Notes: generated by a model not told the origin, from the sequence alone. Positions 971 to 20,000 are shown, numbered from the stretch's first letter. The stretch is 20,000 nucleotides of DNA from an uncultured virus (IMG/VR IMGVR_UViG_3300024264_000021) (IMGVR_UViG_3300024264_000021:54298-74297); one strand, 5' to 3'. Numbers and translations: made by a program.

Positions 971-1007
971 GAATTCTCCTAATTTATTTAATATTTTGAA
1001 CTACTTA

Positions 1008-1015
1008 TATTTATG
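1008..1015 (-). promoter_or_regulatory. T4-type late promoter variant CATAAATA upstream of gp3
   Basis: One mismatch to the T4 gp55 consensus TATAAATA, about 38 nt upstream of the gp3 start. Confidence 0.6.
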
Positions 1016-1028
1016 TTTGAAAAAATAC

Positions 1029-1064
1029 TTGATTTTTTCAAACTTTTGTGGTATTCTATAAATA
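1029..1064 (+). promoter_or_regulatory. Overlapping sigma70-like promoter (TTGATT-N17-TATTCT with TGn extension) and T4 late promoter TATAAATA
   Basis: TTGATT at 1029-1034, TATTCT at 1052-1057 and TATAAATA at 1057-1064, all upstream of ORF 1108. Confidence 0.5.
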
Positions 1065-1107
1065 GAATGTAAACTTAAATTAGCTTACTAAAATAAAATA
1101 AAGAAAT

Positions 1108-2012: not shown

Positions 2013-2165
2013 ATGGAAGAACAGGATGAACTAGTGACTATTGATATACCTACCGATACATTCATAGAATTAGCGTTAGAAGCACACAAAAGAGATATAA
2101 AATTAAATGATTTAATTGTTGAGATTTTAACAGATTATGCTAAAAAAGTTTTAGAAGATAAATAG
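2013..2165 (+). CDS. small ribbon-helix-helix-like protein (50 aa)
   Basis: Below the ORF-track cutoff: MEEQDELVTIDIPTDTFIELALEAHKRDIKLNDLIVEILTDYAKKVLEDK. AAGGA RBS. Aligns with the C-terminus of the upstream ORF. Confidence 0.7.
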   Translation: MEEQDELVTIDIPTDTFIELALEAHKRDIKLNDLIVEILTDYAKKVLEDK

Positions 2166-2175
2166 AATATAAACT
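2157..2175 (+). promoter_or_regulatory. T4-type late promoter variant GATAAATA ahead of the envelope cassette
   Basis: 2158-2175 ATAAATAGAATATAAACT matches 1058-1075 ATAAATAGAATGTAAACT at 17/18 positions. The 8-mer ends about 41 nt upstream of ATG 2206. Confidence 0.5.
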
Positions 2176-2205
2176 CTATTACTAAACTTTTTTAACCATT
2201 TAAAA

Positions 2206-2853
2206 ATGTCATCCGATTTTACAAGAGAGCAATTTTATGAATGGTTATCTAAACATGAAGTTAAGATAATTGAAAAACAAAATGAATTAGATATTCATTT
2301 AAAAGCATTTGAGAAAGAAGTACACGAACTCAAAAAACGTGTATTTAATGACGAACATTTAATTAAAGAATTTGATACTTTTTTTTACAAAGTAATTCTT
2401 CCTAAAGTCGGTAGTATTATTGATCGTGAAAAAAATAATCATGAAAAATTACTAGAACATATTCATGATAAAATTAAAGATTTAGATCAAAATACGGTTA
2501 AAAAATCAAATGTTTCAAAATATGTAGGTACGATACTTGGAGTTGTCTTTGCCGGGGGTTTAGGTTCTGTTTGGAATTCGTTATATGATATGCAAACTAA
2601 ACTGGATTCCGTGCCATTATTGAAAACCCAAGTATCTGAAATGTTGGTTAATAATAGAAACGTTGAAAAACAATTATTTGTCATGGAAGGCAATGTAGAA
2701 TCTATGAAAGAATCTATAGTTGTCATAGAAGACAAAGTTATGACAGTTTCCAGTAGATTAAATTCCGCAGAAAAAAGCATAGAAACTAATGCTTACAGCA
2801 TTTCTGACGTATATTCCAAACTATCTAAAATACTCCCTAAAAACCCTCAATGA
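2206..2853 (+). CDS. single-pass membrane protein flanked by coiled coils
   Basis: 215 aa with a central hydrophobic segment YVGTILGVVFAGGLGSVW and heptad-rich helices on both sides. ATGA overlap with the next gene. Confidence 0.75.
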   Translation: MSSDFTREQFYEWLSKHEVKIIEKQNELDIHLKAFEKEVHELKKRVFNDEHLIKEFDTFFYKVILPKVGSIIDREKNNHEKLLEHIHDKIKDLDQNTVKKSNVSKYVGTILGVVFAGGLGSVWNSLYDMQTKLDSVPLLKTQVSEMLVNNRNVEKQLFVMEGNVESMKESIVVIEDKVMTVSSRLNSAEKSIETNAYSISDVYSKLSKILPKNPQ

Positions 2854-3998
2854 AAAAAATTATACTCACGCTAATCTTTTGTTTAGTGTACGGTTTATTG
2901 TACGCTGAATTACGTTTAAATACTCGGTCATGGTTGACCACAAGCTATGTAGAAACAACAAAGAATGAACTACCAGAAGAATATGCTAATGTAGAAGTTG
3001 GTCTGCAATTAAATGTAGGTATAACAAAGAATCTTAAATGGAATTCATTGTTTGTTTACGAATCCGCTTATGATGATAACAGACAATTAGATTTCAACTA
3101 TTCGTTTGTTCAAGCTGATTATAAGCAAACTGATTTGGGAATAGGATATAGAGTAGGTAGGTTGAGTGTTCCATTTGGTTTTTGGAGTGACACCAAGTTC
3201 GCACCAGAAAGACCATTTGTACTACAATACTATCCGACAAATATGGTATGGCAAAATACTAGAAAACTTCTAACATCTATAGATGGTCATTCTGTATTTG
3301 GTAGACTTCATGTTGGTGGTGCTTGTCTAGAAGTTGAATACTTGCTAGGTTCAAATACAGATTTAAGACCGAGAGAAGATTACGCACAAGATTTTGTTGG
3401 TATGGAACCAGTTGCGCAAAATGTTAACTATGGACTTCAAGCAGAATTATATTACAGCAACTTTAGAATACGTGCAATTGAAAGTAGCATCACTTCAGAC
3501 TTTGAAACAACGAGAGAATTTTATAGTTTGAACCCTTTAATTCCAGAAGCGGATAAAGTTTATGATGTTGTAGATTTAAATTATATTTACAGATATAATG
3601 CTGGTGAATACTACTTGGGTAATTATATTTTTACATTAGAAAAGATAGATAGATTGCGAGAAGCAAATGGCACAGCAAATGATTTGATGAATAAGTATTA
3701 TGGTTTTAAACTTGGACCATCCAAGCAACAATTTTGGAATGCTATGGTTCAATATCGTACCCATAAATATAAATTATGGACTAATTATGGTCATGATTTT
3801 ATAGAAGATATTGATGAGGAAACACATAGAGGATTTGGCATATCTTATGACTATCTTGATAAGTTAATTCTAAAAGGACAGTATAGTAATACTCATGGAA
3901 CTCATCAATTAACTTGGAAAGAAAACAATAGAAACACATCAAATAATCTAAAAGAGAATTGGGATACATATGCGGCGTCTATCACTTACGTTTTTTAA
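2850..3998 (+). CDS. outer-membrane beta-barrel (porin-like) protein
   Basis: Signal peptide MKKIILTLIFCLVYGLLYA; alternating amphipathic strands (VGLQLNVGI, FNYSFVQADY, YRVGRLSVPFG, GFGISYDY..LILKGQY); BAM-type C-terminus WDTYAASITYVF ending in Phe. Confidence 0.8.
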   Translation: MKKIILTLIFCLVYGLLYAELRLNTRSWLTTSYVETTKNELPEEYANVEVGLQLNVGITKNLKWNSLFVYESAYDDNRQLDFNYSFVQADYKQTDLGIGYRVGRLSVPFGFWSDTKFAPERPFVLQYYPTNMVWQNTRKLLTSIDGHSVFGRLHVGGACLEVEYLLGSNTDLRPREDYAQDFVGMEPVAQNVNYGLQAELYYSNFRIRAIESSITSDFETTREFYSLNPLIPEADKVYDVVDLNYIYRYNAGEYYLGNYIFTLEKIDRLREANGTANDLMNKYYGFKLGPSKQQFWNAMVQYRTHKYKLWTNYGHDFIEDIDEETHRGFGISYDYLDKLILKGQYSNTHGTHQLTWKENNRNTSNNLKENWDTYAASITYVF

Positions 3999-4419
3999 TT
4001 TAGCAGTAGCTTTTTTATTAACAACTACAACTATACAAGCTCAAAATTCTATAGCCGTTCATCCTCAGAATAAACTAACACAAGTTGAGGGTGAAGAACT
4101 TATGTATTTTTTGGAAGGTAGAACAGATACTATTCAAGGTGTTCAAACAACTTTAGTCATTGTTTTATATGGTAAAGATTCAACTTTATTAGATTCGGTA
4201 GTACGTGAAATATCCGTTTTACCTCCACATCTTCTTAAAAGAAAAATAGAAGAAAAGATTGCCAGAGGACAACTAGAACAAGTTGAAGTTAAAGCAACAA
4301 CTATGGATTCATATCGTTATGTTTTGGGAAATAGAAATGCAATTGCACTTAGTAATGAAGATACAGCTGGACTAGCTGATATCATTGGACTAAAATTAAT
4401 TCCTATACAGGTCAACTAA
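3970..4419 (+). CDS. small secreted periplasmic-binding-protein-like protein (type often annotated as phosphate ABC substrate-binding protein)
   Basis: Signal peptide ending TIQA. IAVHPQN..V...EL..FL.G near the N-terminus and V..NRNAIA near the C-terminus resemble the ~140-aa PBP-like proteins I recall being encoded next to such porins. Confidence 0.65.
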   Translation: MRRLSLTFFNLAVAFLLTTTTIQAQNSIAVHPQNKLTQVEGEELMYFLEGRTDTIQGVQTTLVIVLYGKDSTLLDSVVREISVLPPHLLKRKIEEKIARGQLEQVEVKATTMDSYRYVLGNRNAIALSNEDTAGLADIIGLKLIPIQVN

Positions 4420-5532: not shown

Positions 5533-6900
5533 GTGAGAGTAAAAATTGTAGGAAATGGTGGCAGAGAATCTGCAATAAAATGGAAATTAACAAAACATTG
5601 TCATGAAATTGTAAATGATTTGCAAGAATTAACTGTCGTAGGTCCTGAAGGACCTATTGCAGATGGTATTGCCGATAGACATGGTTTCATAAGAATAGTT
5701 GCGCCTAGTATGCTTGCGGCTAGATTAGAATCTAGTAAATTGTGGGCCAAACAGTTTATGCAACGATGGGATATACCCACTGCAAGATGGATGACGTATA
5801 CTAGAAATCCTGATGGTATGAATCAAGCGTTGCTTGACCTTGATATCATGCGTAATAATCGTTCCCACAAAATTATAAGTATTAAACCACTAGATTTAGA
5901 AAATCCATATTATCCAGTAGTAATAAAAGAAGATGGACTTTGTGGAGGAAAGGGAGTAGTAATTGCAAGAACTCAAGAAGAAGCTTGGAGGAATATTCCA
6001 CCTATCTTTATTAATAATATTTTTAAATCTTCTTCTAATAAAGTATTATTTGAAGACTATGTATTTGGTTTTGAAGCAAGTTGTTTTGTCATGTCAGACG
6101 GAGATAGCTATAAAATATTACCATTTTGTAAAGATTATAAAAGAATAAATGATGGTGATGAAGGACCAAATACAGGCGGAATGGGTGCTATTGCTCCACA
6201 TCCACTTGTCACTGATAAAATGAAAAAAAGAATAGAAGATACTATTATAAAACCTACATTAAATGGAATGCGTTTAGAAGGTTGTAGATATAAAGGAATA
6301 TTATATATAGGATTAATGATAAATGAAAATGGTCCTTTTGTCTTAGAATATAATGTTAGATTTGGAGACCCTGAATGTCAAGTACTAATGATGCTTATGA
6401 AAGATGACTTAGCTCCGTATTTAAAGGCAATTTCTGAAGGAACATTAGATAATTTACCCGACCCAAAATTTCATGAAGGATATGCTATTACAGTTTCTTT
6501 ATGTTCACAAGGATATCCTCAAAAATATGAACATGGTTATTGCATTGAAGGTTTAGATAAAATTGATAATAGTGTTCAAGTATTTCACGCGGGAACCGTA
6601 TTTGATGAACAATCTCAAAAATACAAAACAAATGGTGGAAGAGTATTAAATGTAACAACATTTGAAAAAACACTTGACAAAGCTAGAGAAAACGTGTATA
6701 ATGCAGTGAATAAAATCAATTTTGATAATATGATCTACAGAAAGGACATAGGCAAAAATGAAAAAAGTGGCAATTCAAACAAAGCTTCGGAGTGGAATCA
6801 AAGACGTAGAAGGGGAAACAATACTGAACTCCGTAGGAAAAGATTTAAAAATCACTCACATTTCCGTAGGGGAGATTTATTATCTAGAAATAGAGAATGA
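5533..6900 (+). CDS. purD: phosphoribosylamine-glycine ligase (GAR synthetase)
   Basis: G.GGRE, VVGPE.P, LESSK..AK.FM, VVIK.DGL.GGKGV, DYKR..DGD.GPNTGGMGA, EYNVRFGDPE, VFHAGT, T.GGRVL, YRKDIG. GTG start. Confidence 0.96.
   Translation: MRVKIVGNGGRESAIKWKLTKHCHEIVNDLQELTVVGPEGPIADGIADRHGFIRIVAPSMLAARLESSKLWAKQFMQRWDIPTARWMTYTRNPDGMNQALLDLDIMRNNRSHKIISIKPLDLENPYYPVVIKEDGLCGGKGVVIARTQEEAWRNIPPIFINNIFKSSSNKVLFEDYVFGFEASCFVMSDGDSYKILPFCKDYKRINDGDEGPNTGGMGAIAPHPLVTDKMKKRIEDTIIKPTLNGMRLEGCRYKGILYIGLMINENGPFVLEYNVRFGDPECQVLMMLMKDDLAPYLKAISEGTLDNLPDPKFHEGYAITVSLCSQGYPQKYEHGYCIEGLDKIDNSVQVFHAGTVFDEQSQKYKTNGGRVLNVTTFEKTLDKARENVYNAVNKINFDNMIYRKDIGKNEKSGNSNKASEWNQRRRRGNNTELRRKRFKNHSHFRRGDLLSRNRE
6674..6702 (+). 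promoter_or_regulatory. perfect sigma70 consensus promoter TTGACA-N17-TATAAT inside purD, upstream of purS
   Basis: TTGACA at 6674-6679, 17-nt spacer, TATAAT at 6697-6702, A-tract upstream, 55 nt before the purS ATG. Confidence 0.7.
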
Positions 6901-6979
6901 TGCTGACGTTGATGATATTGCTAAAAAACTTTTTGTAAACGAATTACTCTATGATTATGAAGTAAAATATGTTGACTAA
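6758..6979 (+). CDS. purS: FGAM synthase subunit PurS (divergent)
   Basis: 73 aa; LR.GIKD.EG.TI, VG....L, KLF.N.L...Y correspond to the PurS motifs D-P-x-G and LLANPVIE. Lies immediately before purL, with an AAGGA RBS. Confidence 0.8.
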   Translation: MKKVAIQTKLRSGIKDVEGETILNSVGKDLKITHISVGEIYYLEIENDADVDDIAKKLFVNELLYDYEVKYVD

Positions 6980-8561
6980 AGATGAACTAATTGAAATTGA
7001 AAAAAGATTAAATAGAAAACCGAATCATACAGAAGAATCCGTTTTTGATGCAATGTGGAGTGAACATTGCAGTTATAAAACAAGCAAGCCTCATTTACGT
7101 AGATTATACACAGATAACAAATATGTTTTTTCAAGTCCTGGTGAAAACGCTGGAGTAATTAGTATTGGTGGCACTGATAAAGTCGCATTTAAAATGGAGT
7201 CACATAATCACCCAAGTTATATTGAACCATTTCAAGGTGCAGCAACCGGAGTTGGTGGTATTCTACGTGATATCTTTACAATGGGATTTAGACCTATTGC
7301 ACTTACCAATAATTTATTTTTCGGAGACCCTGCATTTTCTGATGATAGTAAACGTGTTATGGATGGAGTGATTGCAGGATTAACACACTATGGAAATTGT
7401 GTAGGTGTACCCACTGTCAGTAGTAAAATAAAGTTTAATGAAAGATATGAAAAAAATCCACTAGTAAATGCAATGGCAATTGGTCATACTAGAGAACGTA
7501 TTATAAAAAGTGTAGCCAAAAATCCGGGAAGATTATTATATGTCGGTGCTAAGACAGGAAGAGATGGTATTGGCGGAGCAGTAATGGCAAGTGATAGTTT
7601 CACAGATGGTGTAGATTTACGCCCTACTGTACAAGTGGGAGATCCATATCTAGAAAAGTTGTTAATAGAAGCCTGTCTTGAACTAGCAAAAACAGAACAT
7701 GTGATTGCCGCACAAGATATGGGAGCAGCAGGACTTACCAGTTCTTCTACTGAAATAGGTATAAAAGGAGGCTCTGCATTATTTAAAGGAACATGTGGTA
7801 TAGAATTAAATCTAGATAAAGTTCCGTTAAGAGAAACAGGTATGGAAGCTTGGGAGATTTTACTCAGTGAATCTCAGGAAAGAATGTTGTTTGTTTTGCA
7901 CGATCGGGGAATAGAAGAAGCTAAAGCTATTTTTGATAAATGGGATTTGGATTGTGTAGAAATTGGTCATACAACAGAAGATGGAAATTTTACAGTGTAT
8001 AAGGATGGTAATGTTTGTTGTAATTTTCCGCTTAGTGCTTTAGAATATCCAGAAATGGAAAGACCCTGGAAACCAATATTTGAAAGAGAAGAAGCACAGG
8101 AGAATTATTTTTATAGTTCAGAATTAATTCATTCTCAATATGATAGTGAAGTTCAAGGTAATACAATAAAGGGTATTAGAGATGATGTAGCTATTGTCAG
8201 AATACCTAGAAAAGATGCCAGAGGTAAAGATAAACAAATTGCAATTTATACTGATAGCTTTCCATATCAGAGTTATATTAATCCAGACCAAGGAGCAGAG
8301 AATTGTATAGTTTCAGTTTATGATAAATTAGTTTCTATTGGTGCTAAACCTATAGCATTAACAAATTGTTTGAATTTCGGCAATCCTGAGAACCCTGAGA
8401 TTATGTTTGAGTTTAAAGAAACTATAGATGCAATGGCTAGAATCTGTGAGAAACTGGACTTTCCTGTTGTCAGCGGCAATGTGAGTTTCTATAATGAAAC
8501 ATCAGGACAAAATATATTACCTACTCCAGTATTTGGAGCAATTGGTTTAATGGAGGATTAA
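6969..8561 (+). CDS. purL: FGAM synthase small-type PurL (shortened, 530 aa)
   Basis: MWSEHCSYK, GENAGV, FKMESHNHPS.IEPFQGAATGVGGILRDI, TGRDGIGGA.MAS, VQVGDP, QDMGAAGL, LLSESQERM, TNCLNFGNP, VSGNVSFYNE, PTP. Confidence 0.97.
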   Translation: MLTKDELIEIEKRLNRKPNHTEESVFDAMWSEHCSYKTSKPHLRRLYTDNKYVFSSPGENAGVISIGGTDKVAFKMESHNHPSYIEPFQGAATGVGGILRDIFTMGFRPIALTNNLFFGDPAFSDDSKRVMDGVIAGLTHYGNCVGVPTVSSKIKFNERYEKNPLVNAMAIGHTRERIIKSVAKNPGRLLYVGAKTGRDGIGGAVMASDSFTDGVDLRPTVQVGDPYLEKLLIEACLELAKTEHVIAAQDMGAAGLTSSSTEIGIKGGSALFKGTCGIELNLDKVPLRETGMEAWEILLSESQERMLFVLHDRGIEEAKAIFDKWDLDCVEIGHTTEDGNFTVYKDGNVCCNFPLSALEYPEMERPWKPIFEREEAQENYFYSSELIHSQYDSEVQGNTIKGIRDDVAIVRIPRKDARGKDKQIAIYTDSFPYQSYINPDQGAENCIVSVYDKLVSIGAKPIALTNCLNFGNPENPEIMFEFKETIDAMARICEKLDFPVVSGNVSFYNETSGQNILPTPVFGAIGLMED

Positions 8562-10798: not shown

Positions 10799-11152
10799 TT
10801 GATTATTGGAGATAAAGATTTTACAATTTCTATTACAGAAAAAGCAAAAAATATATTTTATGAAGCAGATGAAAAATTTATAAGAGTTGGAGCAAATCCA
10901 GGAGGATGTTCGGGATGGAGATGGACACTTGAATCAACTAATGACCTCAAACTCAATGATGTTACATTTGAAGGTGGTAGAATAATCATTGATAAAGAAC
11001 TATTGACAAACGTTATAGGTTCTATTACTATAGATTATAAGGATGATAATTTAATTGAACAAGGGTTTGTTTTTTTAACTAATTCAGGACAATGTGGTTG
11101 TGGAGAATCTTTTCAACCGTTAAATTCTAATTTTAAATTAGGAATTGAATAA
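10799..11152 (+). CDS. iscA: A-type Fe-S carrier (IscA/HesB/ErpA family)
   Basis: IT..A, GGCSG, GS.TIDY.....GF.F, CGCGESF, giving all three conserved Cys. GAGG RBS with a TTG start. Confidence 0.9.
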   Translation: MIIGDKDFTISITEKAKNIFYEADEKFIRVGANPGGCSGWRWTLESTNDLKLNDVTFEGGRIIIDKELLTNVIGSITIDYKDDNLIEQGFVFLTNSGQCGCGESFQPLNSNFKLGIE

Positions 11153-11153
11153 T

Positions 11154-11531
11154 ATGTCATACAGCAAAGAAGTCTTGGACCATTATAATGACCCAAAAAA
11201 TGTAGGAAGTTTTTCTAAAGATGATGAAAATATTGGTACAGGATTAGTAGGCGCACCTGAATGTGGTGATGTAATGAAACTACAAATCAAAGTAGAAAAC
11301 GATAGAATAGTTGACGCTAAATTTAAAACATTTGGTTGTGGAAGTGCAATTGCTAGTTCCAGTTTAGCAACTGAATGGGTAAAAGGAAAAACAATAGATG
11401 AGGCACTTGAAATAAAAAATACTGAAATAGTTGAAGAACTCTCTCTACCTCCCGTTAAAATTCATTGTTCTGTTTTAGCAGAAGATGCTATTAAAGCCGC
11501 AATCAAAAATTATCGTGAAAGAGCCGTATGA
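11154..11531 (+). CDS. iscU: Fe-S cluster scaffold IscU
   Basis: YS..VLDHY..P.NVG, GAP.CGDVMKLQI, FKTFGCGSAIASSS, LSLPPVKIHCSVLAEDAIKAA (contains the LPPVK chaperone-binding motif). ATG 11154 with AGGA RBS. Confidence 0.97.
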   Translation: MSYSKEVLDHYNDPKNVGSFSKDDENIGTGLVGAPECGDVMKLQIKVENDRIVDAKFKTFGCGSAIASSSLATEWVKGKTIDEALEIKNTEIVEELSLPPVKIHCSVLAEDAIKAAIKNYRERAV

Positions 11532-15774: not shown

Positions 15775-16425
15775 TTAATCTGTGTAATAAGTTAAGAAAA
15801 ATCCAATATAGCTGACTTGCGTGACATGATTGCCCTCGCCATAGGAATCTGCATATAAAGCATTTACCAATTGCCATTTATCTGCATGTGCTGCTGTTCC
15901 ATTATATGTAAAACTTCCTACTGCATGAGCAAATACTGGAGAAGTCGCAGCAGAAAAAGGAAATCCATTTAATCTTAGTCCAGAACCTGATGTTCCACTA
16001 TTTCCAGAATCACATCTACCCCACAAAGTAACTTGCCTACCAATTTTGATATAAAATCCTTGTTTAGTTAGCCATGTAGAGTCATTGGTCGAAACATGGA
16101 AAACATTTGGAACCCAAGTACCCTCTTCATAATCATCCAGGGTAGTGTTTCCAAAATTAATTCCATAGCTATTTGGAAATGTTAAATTTCCAGCAATATT
16201 CAAATTACCGTTTTTATCCAAGACAAACTTATCCGTATTTACAGTCATAGCATTACCAGTACCAGACTGTATAACTTCTAATGCTGCATTAGAACTTTGA
16301 TAGTTTACTTTAAATCCAGTATTACTGGATTCAAAAAAGTTATTGCTATCAAAGCTAGATGTATCTATAATCTTTGTAAGACCACTTTTTGAATAAATTT
16401 GATCTAGATAAATTCTACTACTCAT
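15775..16425 (-). CDS. tail-fibre-like protein with LDDYEEGTW.P tip domain
   Basis: GN.....F....GI.F, LDDYEEGTW.P, G.Y.KIGR.V, L.G.PF pattern, common in phage fibre tips. Confidence 0.75.
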   Translation of the reverse strand: MSSRIYLDQIYSKSGLTKIIDTSSFDSNNFFESSNTGFKVNYQSSNAALEVIQSGTGNAMTVNTDKFVLDKNGNLNIAGNLTFPNSYGINFGNTTLDDYEEGTWVPNVFHVSTNDSTWLTKQGFYIKIGRQVTLWGRCDSGNSGTSGSGLRLNGFPFSAATSPVFAHAVGSFTYNGTAAHADKWQLVNALYADSYGEGNHVTQVSYIGFFLTYYTD

Positions 16426-16682
16426 GGAGTAACTTCAGCTTGCTCTGCTACATGTTGTTGATATGCAGCTACAACATCTGCTGTATGTACGGCAGCAACA
16501 ATTGCTTGAACTTTTGCATCACGATTAGAAACATCTTCTCCAGGTGGCACAACGTATCTATGATAATTTTGTGAAATCACTTGACCATCTTCCAAGACCT
16601 GTACCGCTTCTCTGACTTGTACATGATTAAATTCTCCGACAACTTCTACTTTGTCTGTGATTGTTCTCTTCTCAAGTGCCAT
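16422..16682 (-). CDS. fibre-associated small protein (usual partner of DDYEEG-type tips)
   Basis: DK.EVV....VQVR.A.....G..IS..YHR.V..P, VQAI..AVHT..VV.AY. AAGGA RBS and ATGA coupling to the next gene. Confidence 0.75.
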   Translation of the reverse strand: MALEKRTITDKVEVVGEFNHVQVREAVQVLEDGQVISQNYHRYVVPPGEDVSNRDAKVQAIVAAVHTADVVAAYQQHVAEQAEVTP

Positions 16683-16721
16683 TTATTTTTCCTTTATAAA
16701 TGATATTAAAATTGTATACTA

Positions 16722-16729
16722 TATTTATC
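16722..16729 (-). promoter_or_regulatory. T4-type late promoter variant GATAAATA
   Basis: About 40 nt upstream of the 16682 start, the same spacing as at gp3. Confidence 0.6.
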
Positions 16730-16756
16730 TATTGTGCTTTAAGAGTTTTTGATATA

Positions 16757-16807
16757 TTAATTTCCTGTTTCTAATGCTTCAATTCTTGCGGTTAGTGCGT
16801 CAATCTC
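16757..16807 (-). pseudogene. orphan 3' end of a tail-fibre gene (chaperone-type coiled-coil tail)
   Basis: After the fibre's TAA-TGA the same frame reads EIDALTARIEALETGN*, resembling the C-terminal coiled coil of intramolecular-chaperone (peptidase S74) fibres. Confidence 0.65.
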
Positions 16808-16810
16808 TCA

Positions 16811-17986
16811 TTAGCGGAAGATTGCTGCTTTAACATTAGAGTTATCAACTAAAGCACCATTTGTATTATATGTGTATACCTTTACAGATCCTGTGCTTTC
16901 ACTGTAAGTATAAGGCCCCTTATCTCCATTTCCACCACCAGCAACAGAAGAAGTAACAGTAGAAAAATTTGCATCTGGCATCGCATTGGTGAAGTTTACT
17001 CCGTAATGTCCTGTTCCTAGATCTGTCAGGCTTGACACATTCCCACTTCCCAAAATTGAAACTGTTCCTGTTCCATTAAACCTTATCCAAGCTCTACACG
17101 CATATGCAGTACCAACTGAACCAAAACCTGAGTCAAATTTAAGATTCCCACTGTTATCAATCCGCATTCTTTCACCATCAACACCGGAAAAAACATACCC
17201 AGTGAATCCAGTTTGATTCCCGTAAAATGTTAGTAACCCAGTAGAACCATTCCGACCAAATTCGTAAGACTGTGTAGCACTTGCACCATTTTCGACTCTA
17301 ATTTGATTATCAGCAACATTTCTAATTGATAAAGTTTGACTTGGACTACTCGTCCCAATCCCCACATTCCCACTGGAATCAACAACCAACGCATTGCTAC
17401 CAATGGCTGCCGTTCCCGCATTCACCACAACACTTCCATTACTCTCACTTATCACACTTCCACCATTGCTATCTACAATTGGAAGAACAGTTGAACTACT
17501 TGTAGCTGGTTCTCTACTAACAATCGCAACCACATCACCGTTCACTGGATTGAGTGTGAATGATATCACTTTTGTGTTAACGTTGATGCTGAAATCACTT
17601 GAAGCAAGTTTCACACCATTCAGGTAAACATCTGTACTGTCACCAGTCAAAGGATATGGAAACGTGACTGTAGTCTCGTTGTTAGCAATTGTATGCTCAT
17701 GACGGCGCTCTGAGAAACGCACACCTTGTGTTAGATTTCTTCTTCCTATAACAACAATGATGTCACCAGCAATGGCATTACTTGCAAGTGTGATGGTCTT
17801 TCTATCTGCGCCAAGAGTGTAGTCATCAGAACCCAGTAAAACACCATTTTTATATACATCTAGGTAATTAGATTTACCTGATACAACAAACCCACTGGTG
17901 GCGATTGTGTTTGTTGTGCTTGTGATGTTGAATTCTTCTCTAAATTCGTTTGATTGTAGTGCTGGTTGTTTTCCTAAGTAGGCCAT
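16811..17986 (-). CDS. tail fibre / virion fibre protein
   Basis: N-terminal MAYLGKQP, two DVY.NGV.L...D......GD.. repeats, shaft motifs GNVGIGTSSP and ERMRID.SGN, and a C-terminal RAW..F.G...NVSS.TD.GTG.Y.VNF..AM.D.N tip domain. Confidence 0.85.
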   Translation of the reverse strand: MAYLGKQPALQSNEFREEFNITSTTNTIATSGFVVSGKSNYLDVYKNGVLLGSDDYTLGADRKTITLASNAIAGDIIVVIGRRNLTQGVRFSERRHEHTIANNETTVTFPYPLTGDSTDVYLNGVKLASSDFSINVNTKVISFTLNPVNGDVVAIVSREPATSSSTVLPIVDSNGGSVISESNGSVVVNAGTAAIGSNALVVDSSGNVGIGTSSPSQTLSIRNVADNQIRVENGASATQSYEFGRNGSTGLLTFYGNQTGFTGYVFSGVDGERMRIDNSGNLKFDSGFGSVGTAYACRAWIRFNGTGTVSILGSGNVSSLTDLGTGHYGVNFTNAMPDANFSTVTSSVAGGGNGDKGPYTYSESTGSVKVYTYNTNGALVDNSNVKAAIFR

Positions 17987-18216
17987 TAACTAGTCTCTAT
18001 GTTTATAGCCTTTAAATCTTCAACGGATGTAGCTGTATCACAAAGCATCGTGATGTCTCTGAGTCGTTGCTTCTCCGCTACAATTGCAGTTGTATCAGTT
18101 CCGGCTTCCTGCTCTCTCATATAGAGTATATCTTGAGCCTCTAACAAAGGCTTGCGTTCTTGTCGTAGCGATTCACGTTTGATCTCTCTGGCTTTATCTA
18201 AATTTATTGTAATCAT
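17986..18216 (-). CDS. tail fibre assembly chaperone-like protein
   Basis: I.INLDKA.EI....LR.ER.PLL...D..Y.R..E, I..EKQ.LRD.T pattern. Confidence 0.75.
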   Translation of the reverse strand: MITINLDKAREIKRESLRQERKPLLEAQDILYMREQEAGTDTTAIVAEKQRLRDITMLCDTATSVEDLKAINIETS

Positions 18217-18231
18217 TGGGTTCCTTAGTTG

Positions 18232-18582
18232 TTAGCGGAAGATTGCGACAGAAACAAATGGCGAGTCTTGTAATGCTGTGCTGGTCTGAAGGGTAGTAAT
18301 TCTCACCGAATCTGTGGCAACGTTAGCATCTCCATCGCTTGTCTGAACTACGATGAAAACTCCGTAGTCACTTACTCCATCATAGTGTCTACCACAAGCA
18401 GTAACGACATAATCATTATCCGGCATTGCATTCTCAAAGTTCACGGTATAGTCTCCTGTGCCGTTGTCGGTGATGCTGGAAACACTGAAGCTGGCCCGTA
18501 TTGCTACCGTTCCCGTACCATTAAAATTCACCCACGCAGCAAGCTGATGTCCTGCATCTGCAATTTCAACCGATCTGGTCAC
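18232..18582 (-). CDS. stand-alone fibre tip module (AWVNF type)
   Basis: Short leader MTRSVEIADAG, then AWVNFNGTGTVAIR.S..VSSITDNGTGDYTVNF..AMPD..Y...VAIFR, paralogous to the 391-aa fibre tip. GTG start. Confidence 0.8.
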   Translation of the reverse strand: MTRSVEIADAGHQLAAWVNFNGTGTVAIRASFSVSSITDNGTGDYTVNFENAMPDNDYVVTACGRHYDGVSDYGVFIVVQTSDGDANVATDSVRITTLQTSTALQDSPFVSVAIFR

Positions 18583-18794
18583 GCTCCCACCCCATCATAG
18601 CTATTAGTGAAATCGTAGTCCCAAGCATTGCGAAACTCCCGGTCTGCTGGCAGTTCGCTACTGTCGATGATCTTGTATTTGACACCCGTAGGGACATCTT
18701 TCGCACAGATCTGTTCTAACGTAAGCCCACAGTTCGGGGCTGGTACTAGCACACTGATTATGCCTTCGTCATTTTTGAAAATTGCTAGATTCAT
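18579..18794 (-). CDS. fibre-associated small protein / chaperone
   Basis: G...V..P, T.E.I..KDVP.G..Y.I.....LP.DR.FRNAW pattern, which I recall beside AWVNF tip genes. Confidence 0.75.
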   Translation of the reverse strand: MNLAIFKNDEGIISVLVPAPNCGLTLEQICAKDVPTGVKYKIIDSSELPADREFRNAWDYDFTNSYDGVGA

Positions 18795-18809
18795 TCTAAT
18801 CCTTTGTTG

Positions 18810-19355
18810 TTAGTTAAAAACGGCAACAGTAACTCGACTTGCATCCGTTCGGTAAACTCCATCTCCAATAAAACAAGTTAATTGCAGTTGTGTTGTTGAA
18901 TAATACGATGGAGAATCTTTACCAAATACAACAGAAGCTGATCCACTACTTGGTTGATTATGATTACCTACTGCTGTGTAATTCACATCCGACATTGCCG
19001 TTGTAAAATTTACGGTGTAGTTGCCTTGTCCGTTATCGAAAATGCTGGAAACATTTCCACTTTTCCGAATCTGCGCATCAATCGTAACTGTAGTGCCAGA
19101 TACCGTTAAGTCTACACCTTCTCCATCACCTATTTCGTGATTCCCACTTGTATTGATTGTGTAAGTAGTTCCCGAATATTCTACTGTAAACTGCGTTGCT
19201 GTGACAACCGTAGCAGTGTAAAGCCCAGTAATTAATCCGCTAGCAGTAGCAGTCCCTGATTGTGATGTTCCACGAAAATTCACCCACGCACGACAAGCGT
19301 AAATCGGAGCATCATCACCATTCGGCAAGTTCGCTATATTTCTTGCGTTACTCAT
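18810..19355 (-). CDS. fibre tip module (AWVNF type) with inserted beta-rich domain
   Basis: Start moved to ATG 19355 (MSNARNIANL, ATGA-coupled). YACRAWVNF.G, then an insert of about 60 aa, then IR.SGNVSSI.DNG.G.YTVNF.TAM.D.NY. Confidence 0.8.
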   Translation of the reverse strand: MSNARNIANLPNGDDAPIYACRAWVNFRGTSQSGTATASGLITGLYTATVVTATQFTVEYSGTTYTINTSGNHEIGDGEGVDLTVSGTTVTIDAQIRKSGNVSSIFDNGQGNYTVNFTTAMSDVNYTAVGNHNQPSSGSASVVFGKDSPSYYSTTQLQLTCFIGDGVYRTDASRVTVAVFN

Positions 19356-19717
19356 ACTGCATCCGGTGGTGTGGGCCAAACTACGTTGGTTAGTTGTCCG
19401 TTCTCATCTAGCGTTGGTTCTGCGGTAGCAGGGAGATTGCGGAGACTAGTACGATAACTAGCCCACTCTGCTTGATCTGCGTAGGGATAGTCTGTGGTCA
19501 TTCGCCAGTCTGACCTAATAAGTAAGTCATTCCGTTGAGTTCTTAGTTGTTCAAAAGCATCAGTAAATTCGTTTACAAAACTTCCATCTACATATTTAGT
19601 TCCGTAGCGAATATTTGTTTCATTCGTTTCGATCCATTGAAAATCAGGATGCACATCAAATGGTGTTTCTTCTGTCTGAACGACAATATTTTTCCGAGTG
19701 TCAATCAGTGCGTACAT
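19352..19717 (-). CDS. phage tail (fibre) assembly chaperone domain protein
   Basis: LR..RN.LL..SDW....D......WA.YR..LR.LP.......WP..P in the C-terminal half. GAGG RBS. Confidence 0.85.
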   Translation of the reverse strand: MYALIDTRKNIVVQTEETPFDVHPDFQWIETNETNIRYGTKYVDGSFVNEFTDAFEQLRTQRNDLLIRSDWRMTTDYPYADQAEWASYRTSLRNLPATAEPTLDENGQLTNVVWPTPPDAV

Positions 19718-19725
19718 TTAACCTC

Positions 19726-20000
19726 TTATAAAAGCTCGAAAACAATGACATAGCCAGCAGCACCAGCAAGGCCATTAGCATAGGAATCCCCAGAACTGGC
19801 TGAACCGGCTCCTCCCACTGTTACGGAAACAGTTGAAGCCACTCCAGTAATGAATTCGCAAGCAAAACCACCAGCACCACCGTATTGCCCAATATCTCTT
19901 GCAGACCCCCCAGCATATCGGTTCCCTGCTGCACCTCCCACTGTGCTATTGGAATTCACGTTTCCACCAGAACCAGAGCCGTTAGCTGCTCCCAATCTGG
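19726..20000 (-). CDS. C-terminus of a glycine-rich fibre-like protein (5' end outside the window)
   Basis: GGAGG......V.VTVG..G......G..G.V.V.E glycine-rich domain. The frame is open to the window edge. Confidence 0.7.
   Translation of the reverse strand, partial: RLGAANGSGSGGNVNSNSTVGGAAGNRYAGGSARDIGQYGGAGGFACEFITGVASTVSVTVGGAGSASSGDSYANGLAGAAGYVIVFELL

Follow-up and report, generated by a model that had tools for sequence, protein, structure and literature searches.

We describe three overlapping genes, CC215, BB382 and SP149, in a 20,000-nucleotide stretch of DNA from an uncultured virus (IMG/VR record IMGVR_UViG_3300024264_000021, positions 54298-74297; 'the window' denotes this whole stretch). 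The window is the final 20 kb of a 74-kb record with an estimated completeness of 41%, and the source, judged from its sequence, is an uncultured marine T4-like myophage. By homology, BB382 and SP149 are the phage copy of a bacterial unit, that is, an outer-membrane barrel and a secreted protein of ~140 aa that are encoded together; in the phage, CC215, a predicted membrane protein, stands in the place of the catalytic sensor that adjoins the bacterial unit. The module probably senses or takes up something across the envelope of the infected cell. Our preferred reading, to which we give a probability of about 0.4, is that it is not a transporter but an envelope sensing front-end whose connection to a bacterial kinase or cyclase has been replaced by one to a phage transducer.

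The three genes are open reading frames (ORFs):

2206..2853, plus strand: CC215, ORF of 215 aa
2850..3998, plus strand: BB382, ORF of 382 aa
3970..4419, plus strand: SP149, ORF of 149 aa

As a first-pass annotation of the window had claimed, the ORFs overlap on the same strand (CC215/BB382 by ATGA, BB382/SP149 by 29 nt), and the anatomy that it proposed (a coiled-coil protein in the inner membrane, a barrel in the outer membrane and a small secreted protein) holds. Domain searches of the three genes and the adjoining genes found no permease, ATPase or catalytic signalling domain; this bears out the same annotation, including its view that a non-catalytic membrane protein holds the sensor position. 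All three genes are under purifying selection (ratio of nonsynonymous to synonymous substitution rates, dN/dS, 0.13-0.22: 0.20-0.22 for CC215, 0.13-0.15 for BB382 and 0.20 for SP149) and are kept at one genomic place, so we take them to be real, selected genes. The triad occurs on 5 contigs in IMG/VR and at 12 loci in Joint Genome Institute (JGI) metagenomes, as alleles of 74-98% identity at the same genomic place. Word-indexed searches add 6 relatives of BB382 (43-97% identity) and 10 of SP149 (71-92% identity), all metagenomic and without names; BB382 has no match in GenBank phages.

A predicted porin-fold barrel

BB382 is, as modelled, an outer-membrane barrel with the 16-strand porin fold. 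Its N-terminus is hydrophobic (19-residue Kyte-Doolittle hydropathy, KD19, 1.92), with a signal peptide at residues 1-19 and a cleavage motif, LYA/E, read by eye; its C-terminus is TYVF, an aromatic beta-signal. The AlphaFold2 (AF2) model, made from a 7-sequence alignment, has 16 antiparallel strands at medium confidence (pLDDT, the predicted local distance difference test score, 61; predicted template-modelling score, pTM, 0.63); one side has short turns and the opposite side long loops. The structural search VIA returns OmpT (Z 12.8), the chitoporin VhChiP (12.7), OprP (12.3) and OmpU (11.2), with a range of 12.8-10.6 when the Rh. blastica porin is included and with rows within 1 Z unit taken as tied; Foldseek returns OmpC/OmpF (E 1e-8), with template-modelling (TM) scores of only 0.37-0.44. 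With porins at the top of both searches, the 382-aa protein models as the beta-barrel that had been predicted for it.

General 16-strand porins (OmpF/OmpC, V. cholerae OmpT/OmpU, VhChiP, OprP) share with this model the number of strands, the short periplasmic turns, a long third loop and the C-terminal aromatic residue; they differ in that the TM scores are low, the model is of medium confidence and there is no family match at the level of sequence. For BB382, Pfam, PHROGs, NCBIfam and PDB sequence profiles return nothing, and Porin_O_P (PF07396) gives no match at E <=0.1.

The most conserved part of the barrel is the third loop of the model (36 residues):

3168..3275, plus strand: segment of BB382 that encodes the L3-like loop (residues 107-142, with the motif PFGFWSDTKF..RPFVLQYYP)

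In this loop, 27 of the 36 residues are invariant in 7 sequences, versus 0-55% in the other segments of BB382, and dN/dS is 0.018 (against the relative L001). Positions G, R, GF, P and W are common to the phage barrels and to the bacterial barrels described below. The loop is the family signature and probably forms a pore constriction or a docking surface.

Bacterial relatives beside membrane sensors

The phage IscU (window 11145-11531, NifU_N) is 82-85% identical to the IscU of metagenome-assembled genomes (MAGs) of SAR324, so we searched the SAR324 phylum genome by genome. The bacterial family was reached only through this per-genome hidden Markov model (HMM) search; pattern scans of 185,579 species genomes with three alignments gave no match. 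A barrel homologue was found in 7 of 88 SAR324-phylum genomes (E 1e-12 to 7e-6). In the four that were fetched (G051, G053, G055, G057), a barrel of 433-442 aa is followed, after 6 nt, by a secreted protein of 139 aa. In the two SAR324 loci with enough flank (L135 and L137), a divergent ORF of 564-567 aa precedes the barrel; the one in L135 (6376-8070) has HATPase_c, the only domain that Pfam finds in this kinase, two membrane segments and a periplasmic part of ~200 aa (read by eye) that has no family match. The unit contains no permease or ATPase, and no transporter gene lies near it except, in SAR324, a convergent one of the MFS type downstream.

The phage and SAR324 barrels align over their full length (hhalign probability 97.7%, E 2e-12). 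The profile of SP149 and its relatives (7 barrel-linked phage sequences) aligns with the four SAR324 139-aa proteins over 110 columns (probability 91%, E 1.1e-6, score 43); as controls, 100 column shuffles score 11.8 on average and at most 19.4, and the reversed alignment scores 10.0. An HMM of the SP family run on the 88 SAR324 genomes misses the bacterial small protein, giving one marginal match (E 0.004).

A pattern scan with a joint alignment identified 7 SAR324 loci, 1 Contendobacter locus and 3 Marinobacterium loci (L146-L148). The Marinobacterium genes encode, in this order, a 142-aa protein, a barrel of 422 aa and, directly downstream, a dCache_3-GGDEF-EAL protein (L148 3963-6179). The merged phage and SAR324 small-protein profile aligns end-to-end with the gammaproteobacterial proteins (39% probability, E 3.2e-4). 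The HMM built solely from phage barrels detects the SAR324 barrels at 8e-25 and the gammaproteobacterial ones at 1e-11 to 1.5e-8 (E-values for a small ORF set), with 64-80 bits versus 26-36 bits. In the lineages compared, the pair of porin and ~140-aa protein thus lies beside membrane sensors, that is, a histidine kinase in SAR324 and a dCache_3-GGDEF-EAL protein in Marinobacterium, as the first-pass annotation had stated.

The full-length homology of the barrel, the homology of the small protein, the tight coupling of the genes and the signal peptides on both products are shared by the phage and bacterial units, and the linkage of BB382 to SP149 is as tight as in the bacterial unit. The phage order, barrel followed by small protein, is that of SAR324 and is reversed in Marinobacterium. 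The phage unit differs in having no kinase, cyclase or chemoreceptor, with the unrelated, non-catalytic CC215 in its stead. The phage barrel is only 21-24% identical to the bacterial barrels, and GC content is 31% in the phage versus 49-50% in the SAR324 genes (30% versus 45-60% for the bacterial loci).

The IscU is similar to that of SAR324, the nearest barrels are from SAR324, and two of the SAR324 barrel loci lie in MAGs that also give top IscU matches (CAXGMD01, NYVT01); this is a hint, from a comparison of few lineages, that SAR324 may be the host, and it is one that can be tested for an uncultured T4-like phage group.

SP149, a putative single lobe of a binding fold

The N-terminus of SP149 is hydrophobic (KD19 1.68), with a signal peptide at residues 1-24 and a cleavage motif, IQA/Q, read by eye. 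The mature protein has ~125 aa and no Cys; this length allows at most one lobe, and the hinged two-lobe architecture of PstS-type proteins is therefore absent. SP149 probably corresponds to a single lobe of the PstS-type binding fold. The evidence for this assignment is a weak, indirect chain of homology that leads from SP149 to the SAR324 139-aa protein (91%), from there to the gammaproteobacterial 142-aa protein (39%, E 3.2e-4) and finally to PF12849, the last step being a weak match of the Contendobacter small protein (E 0.006) and an hhalign result of 28%. The one direct hint comes from the language-model neighbours of SP149 in the ESM Atlas (0.94-0.96), which include one cluster with PF12849 in 46% of its members.

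An exhaustive profile search with SP149 found 6 proteins only; a word-indexed search with a wider SP alignment found 33, without names, including a subfamily of 170-229 aa. Two distant relatives of SP149, P0017 (52%) and P0018 (34%), have N-termini that are compatible with an overlapping barrel tail: P0017 with the tail of P0006 and P0018 with window-type tails are codon-compatible at 9 of 9 positions, a fit reached by 17 of 20000 shuffled N-termini. Because these N-termini fit the overlap, the linkage between barrel and SP149 probably reaches deeper than the visible gene contexts.

CC215 and the conserved phage core

CC215 is predicted to be a single-pass membrane protein that is specific to phages. 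Its membrane segment is encoded as follows:

2524..2580, plus strand: coding region of the hydrophobic segment of CC215 (residues 107-125, VGTILGVVFAGGLGSVWNS; highest KD19)

The segment is moderately hydrophobic, Gly-rich and near-invariant among four CC homologues, and heptad-like stretches occupy residues 19-66 and 133-212. The bias of Lys and Arg around the segment (4 before versus 2 after) is weak; together with the absence of a signal peptide, it suggests an N-in/C-out topology. The conserved N-terminal domain and its coil are then probably cytoplasmic and the C-terminal coil of ~80 residues is probably periplasmic.

One divergent viral contig, L109 (33 kb, 35% GC, from a record that is 23% complete), has a syntenic block with the same small upstream genes. 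It encodes a homologue of CC215 (L109:2267-2983, 46% identity over 204 aa, E 1e-71) that is followed directly, with an overlap of 17 nt, by an SP-type gene of the 170-229-aa subfamily (28% identity to SP149, E 2e-11); no barrel gene lies between them, and none was found elsewhere in this 23% complete record. The expectation that the three genes are conserved together is thus borne out for the lineage of the window and for those of the 79% and 74% alleles and fails in L109, so CC and SP, and not the whole triad, make up what is conserved in phages. As far as these sequences reach, CC215 is the constant neighbour of an SP-type protein in phages.

A search of five SAR324 genomes with the CC alignment found nothing, and hhalign finds CC215 unrelated to the SAR324 kinase (probability 0.1%). 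The L109 homologue, used as the query in place of CC215 itself, to which it is 46% identical, has no match in GenBank phages; the ESM Atlas gives only unnamed clusters at <=0.90.

Lysis systems offer a comparison for this pair. Holin T and antiholin RI of T4 and the Rz/Rz1 spanins likewise combine a single-pass membrane protein that has a periplasmic domain with a small secreted partner; overlapping genes and a T4-like phage are further points in common. CC215 might then act like a holin, an antiholin target or an i-spanin, with SP149 as a periplasmic regulator and the barrel as an added outer-membrane element, in a system for the control of lysis or superinfection. The Gly-rich, weakly hydrophobic segment, the long periplasmic coil, the restriction of CC to phages, a weak PHROG match to 'hemolysin' (phrog_937, E 0.0016, residues 17-120) and the swapping of alleles described below, which is typical of conflict genes, all speak for this. 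We nevertheless judge it improbable: Pfam and PHROGs give no significant match to holin, antiholin or spanin families, and no sequence similarity to the T4 or Rz/Rz1 proteins was found; the membrane segment of CC215 is in the middle of the protein; and no lipoprotein that could be an o-spanin is encoded, because SP149 has no Cys and BB382 no lipobox (its only N-terminal Cys is preceded by LIF, read by eye). In addition, the homologues of the barrel and SP149 are chromosomal and sensor-linked in bacteria, and selection on all of the genes is purifying, not positive.

Allele replacement in the module

CC215 and BB382 form a block of imported variation:

2132..3983, no strand assigned: allele-replacement block (DNA alignment against four IMG/VR relatives, L001-L004)

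This alignment shows differences from 2132 to 3983 and 100% identity from there to 4500. Twelve flanking proteins were compared: identity is 100% for 10 or 11 of them per locus and 98-99.8% for the remainder; the module proteins are 85% (CC), 79% (BB) and 98.7% (SP149) identical. Synonymous divergence (dS) is 0.89 in the N-terminal part of CC, 0.22 in its hydrophobic segment and C-terminal part, 0.89 in BB and 0 in SP149; the swap therefore exchanges the barrel and the N-terminal half of CC and leaves the C-terminal half of CC and SP149 conserved. The divergence of the block is of the same order as that from a 146-kb relative, L005. Because all of the genes are under purifying selection, we read the block as imported variation and not as decay, with no detectable positive selection.

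Contigs from metatranscriptomic libraries (three studies) cover 2186-4017 and then continue into a different SP149 allele; in runs X15, X16 and X18, a window-type barrel is joined to the other allele at 4016-4017. Such contigs cannot reveal transcription, strand or transcript ends, and flanks that they leave uncovered may be other alleles; at the level of sequence they represent a further recombinant, and because they switch SP149 allele there, the BB382/SP149 boundary is a recurrent recombination point. The swapped block marks the locus as an exchange hot spot within an otherwise clonal phage population. As a separate observation, the signal-peptide region of SP149 in X15, X16 and X18 resembles the P0008 type (by eye).

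Exchange of this kind could reflect remodelling of the cell surface, with the phage barrel replacing or masking a receptor porin or acting as a decoy and its allele diversity arising from conflict among phages. That the barrel and the N-terminal half of CC form the swapped block inside otherwise identical genomes, and that the RNA-library contigs join the window-type barrel to another SP149 allele, fit this explanation; so does dN/dS in the external loops other than L3, which is 0.275 versus 0.13 in the strands (against L001). However, the loop value is far below 1 and is not raised against L005 (0.14), the inward L3-type loop is the most conserved, which suggests a working channel or docking site, and SP149 and CC215 are left unexplained. 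We regard this as the least probable of the explanations, and a very improbable one.

Sensing or uptake

In the preferred reading, an envelope sensing front-end, a small solute would enter the infected cell's periplasm through the BB382 barrel; SP149, a putative single lobe of a phosphate-binder-type fold, would bind or report the solute and would dock on the predicted periplasmic coil of CC215; and the conserved cytoplasmic domain of CC215 would relay this state to a phage process (e.g., lysis timing or superinfection status). We favour sensing over transport because the bacterial units adjoin sensors, the phage has no permease and a single lobe would be a poor shuttle. We also count for it the tight linkage of BB382 and SP149, the linkage of CC and SP without a barrel in L109, and the conservation of the C-terminal half of CC and of SP149 in the allele swap. 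Whether the captured pore and single-lobe binder let the phage read an outside or periplasmic cue and tune its programme (e.g., the time of lysis) is a more tentative proposal, possible but on the unlikely side.

Several observations weigh against sensing. A lytic phage has no obvious need of a solute sensor, and the module is rare (6 records in 2.9 million IMG/VR contigs); CC was found on just six IMG/VR contigs, with no homologue outside these viral contigs. In Pfam, CC215 gives coiled-coil noise only, with no catalytic or recognisable signalling domain; its segment is weak (KD19 1.31, the highest window of the protein and below the usual threshold of 1.6), and its predicted topology depends on a count of 4 charges versus 2. 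The adjacency of the bacterial unit to sensors was seen in two lineages only. The fold of SP149 is a further difficulty: its AF2 model (11-sequence alignment) has a pLDDT of 47 and a best VIA Z of 3.2, which is meaningless; it has no match in Pfam, PHROGs, NCBIfam or PDB sequences, nor do 27 family members in Pfam; and hhalign gives its profiles <1% probability against eight SAR324 PF12849 proteins, a heterogeneous template set with one junk row. The whole virus record also has no PF12849 match at E <=0.01. The suggestion of the first-pass annotation that the 149-aa protein has a periplasmic-binding-protein-like fold is therefore supported indirectly, by the homology chain, and hinted at by the Atlas cluster; the protein's own model is poor, and the Pfam, PDB-sequence and hhalign results are negative.

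In binding-protein-dependent sensing, known for sugar-binding proteins, which dock on chemoreceptors, and for PstS-type proteins, a periplasmic binder acts together with a membrane protein with helices in its periplasmic part, as we would also expect of SP149 and CC215. The phage components differ in that the binder is a putative single lobe and CC215 has a single membrane segment and lacks a known output domain.

Nutrient uptake is a rival explanation. A limiting solute, which might be phosphate or another oxyanion, would cross the outer membrane at a higher flux because of the barrel, and SP149 would pass it to host transporters; the solute would feed the nucleotide synthesis that is encoded next door, with CC215 only an anchor or assembly factor. 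The module does lie in an auxiliary-gene region, beside purE, purD, purS, purL, purQ, purM and the gene for IscU; OprP is in the top three of the structural search, in a tie with general porins; the gammaproteobacterial barrel homologues have sub-threshold matches to Porin_O_P (17.2 and 19.1 bits versus a cut-off of 20.9); and BFVD, which holds viral proteins annotated as porins, gives as its best match a protein annotated as a phosphate-selective porin (E 7.5e-6, TM 0.30). Pores or binders of marine viruses have also been published: pelagimyophages carry a CsgG/CsgF outer-membrane pore, for which the authors also raise uptake (PMC7029224), an OmpL porin gene follows glnK-amtB on viral contigs (PMC8115048), and PstS is a structural variant in pelagimyophages (PMC12379486). 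Against uptake, neither a permease nor an ATPase is encoded by the three genes or their neighbours, a single lobe of 125 aa cannot enclose a ligand in the manner of a two-lobe binding protein, the bacterial homologues adjoin sensors and not ABC systems, CC and SP persist without the barrel in L109, and BB382 itself lacks a Porin_O_P match. For the link to the purine genes that the first-pass annotation had raised, we found nothing beyond adjacency. We consider uptake unlikely.

The CsgG/CsgF and OmpL genes resemble BB382 in being outer-membrane channel genes in variable auxiliary regions of uncultured marine phages; their function is unproven, with uptake proposed. They belong to other protein families, whereas BB382 is encoded together with a secreted half-binder and with a membrane protein specific to phages, and is related to barrels that are sensor-linked in bacteria. 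The claim that no such system had been described in phages thus stands for this module and not for outer-membrane pores, which are published (PMC7029224, PMC8115048). In open-access full text we found no literature on the bacterial barrel plus ~140-aa unit, its half-binder or CC215.

Phage-borne envelope genes of bacterial origin are already known; what may be new, on the reading as a sensing front-end, is the rewiring of a sensory input module to a protein of the phage. Phages are known for metabolic and transport genes, and a borrowed sensory input module, if true, would be a different kind of host takeover: an environmental sensor encoded by a phage and built from host sensory parts. It would also provide the first functional handle on a widespread and unstudied bacterial cassette. 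The phage is also linked to an uncharacterised barrel plus half-binder unit that lies beside kinases and cyclic di-GMP enzymes and that occurs in the cultured genus Marinobacterium, where it is open to genetic study.

Genome context and promoter motifs

Genes for UvsY and for a gp3-like tail protein lie in the window; the gp3-like protein shares no more than 32% identity with cyanomyophage proteins and has no match in the one low-GC SAR324 single-cell genome that was searched. These genes are followed by the long co-directional block that contains the purine genes and IscU. In this block, the purD ORF (455 aa, from 5533) extends 143 nt into purS (6758-6979); its GARS_C domain ends at residue 408, and its last ~47 residues overlap purS in another frame. 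In L109, an IscU-like N-terminus (8186-8536) is followed by a stretch, CFSGDTLI..., that resembles an intein (Hint) insertion and inside which the contig ends.

Immediately 5' of CC215, two small ORFs (1691-2165) have C-terminal ribbon-helix-helix-like similarity, with weak CopG and Arc-like matches (phrog_582, E 4e-4); a single 125-aa ORF corresponds to them in L109.

The GC content is 24-36% as far as ~16 kb and then, in 16000-20000, climbs from ~30% to 41-45%, where the genes turn to the minus strand and include a Phage_tail_APC tail assembly chaperone and weak DUF2460 and Ig-like matches. Compared with two relatives, the 15.8-20 kb part has only a 190-nt match, in one of them. The region 16000-20000 might represent another module or a chimeric join where the record ends.

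A late-promoter motif had been proposed ahead of the module. The motif at 2157-2164, GATAAATA, is one mismatch from the T4 late consensus, TATAAATA; the window contains 84 such one-mismatch matches versus 83 expected, so the motif is no better than chance. The sole exact TATAAATA (1 match versus 3.9 expected) is at 1057-1064, in the intergenic region ahead of the whole block, and overlaps a candidate promoter that was identified by eye, without statistics:

1029..1064, plus strand: candidate promoter of the co-directional gene block beginning at 1108 (sigma-70-like TTGATT-N17-TATTCT overlapping the exact TATAAATA)

The sigma-70-like pattern TTGAyT-N17-TAnnnT is kept in this intergenic region in three divergent phages (window 971-1107, L005 4333-4460, L109 1050-1298), with a TAAATA core just downstream; the exact TATAAATA is present in the window only.

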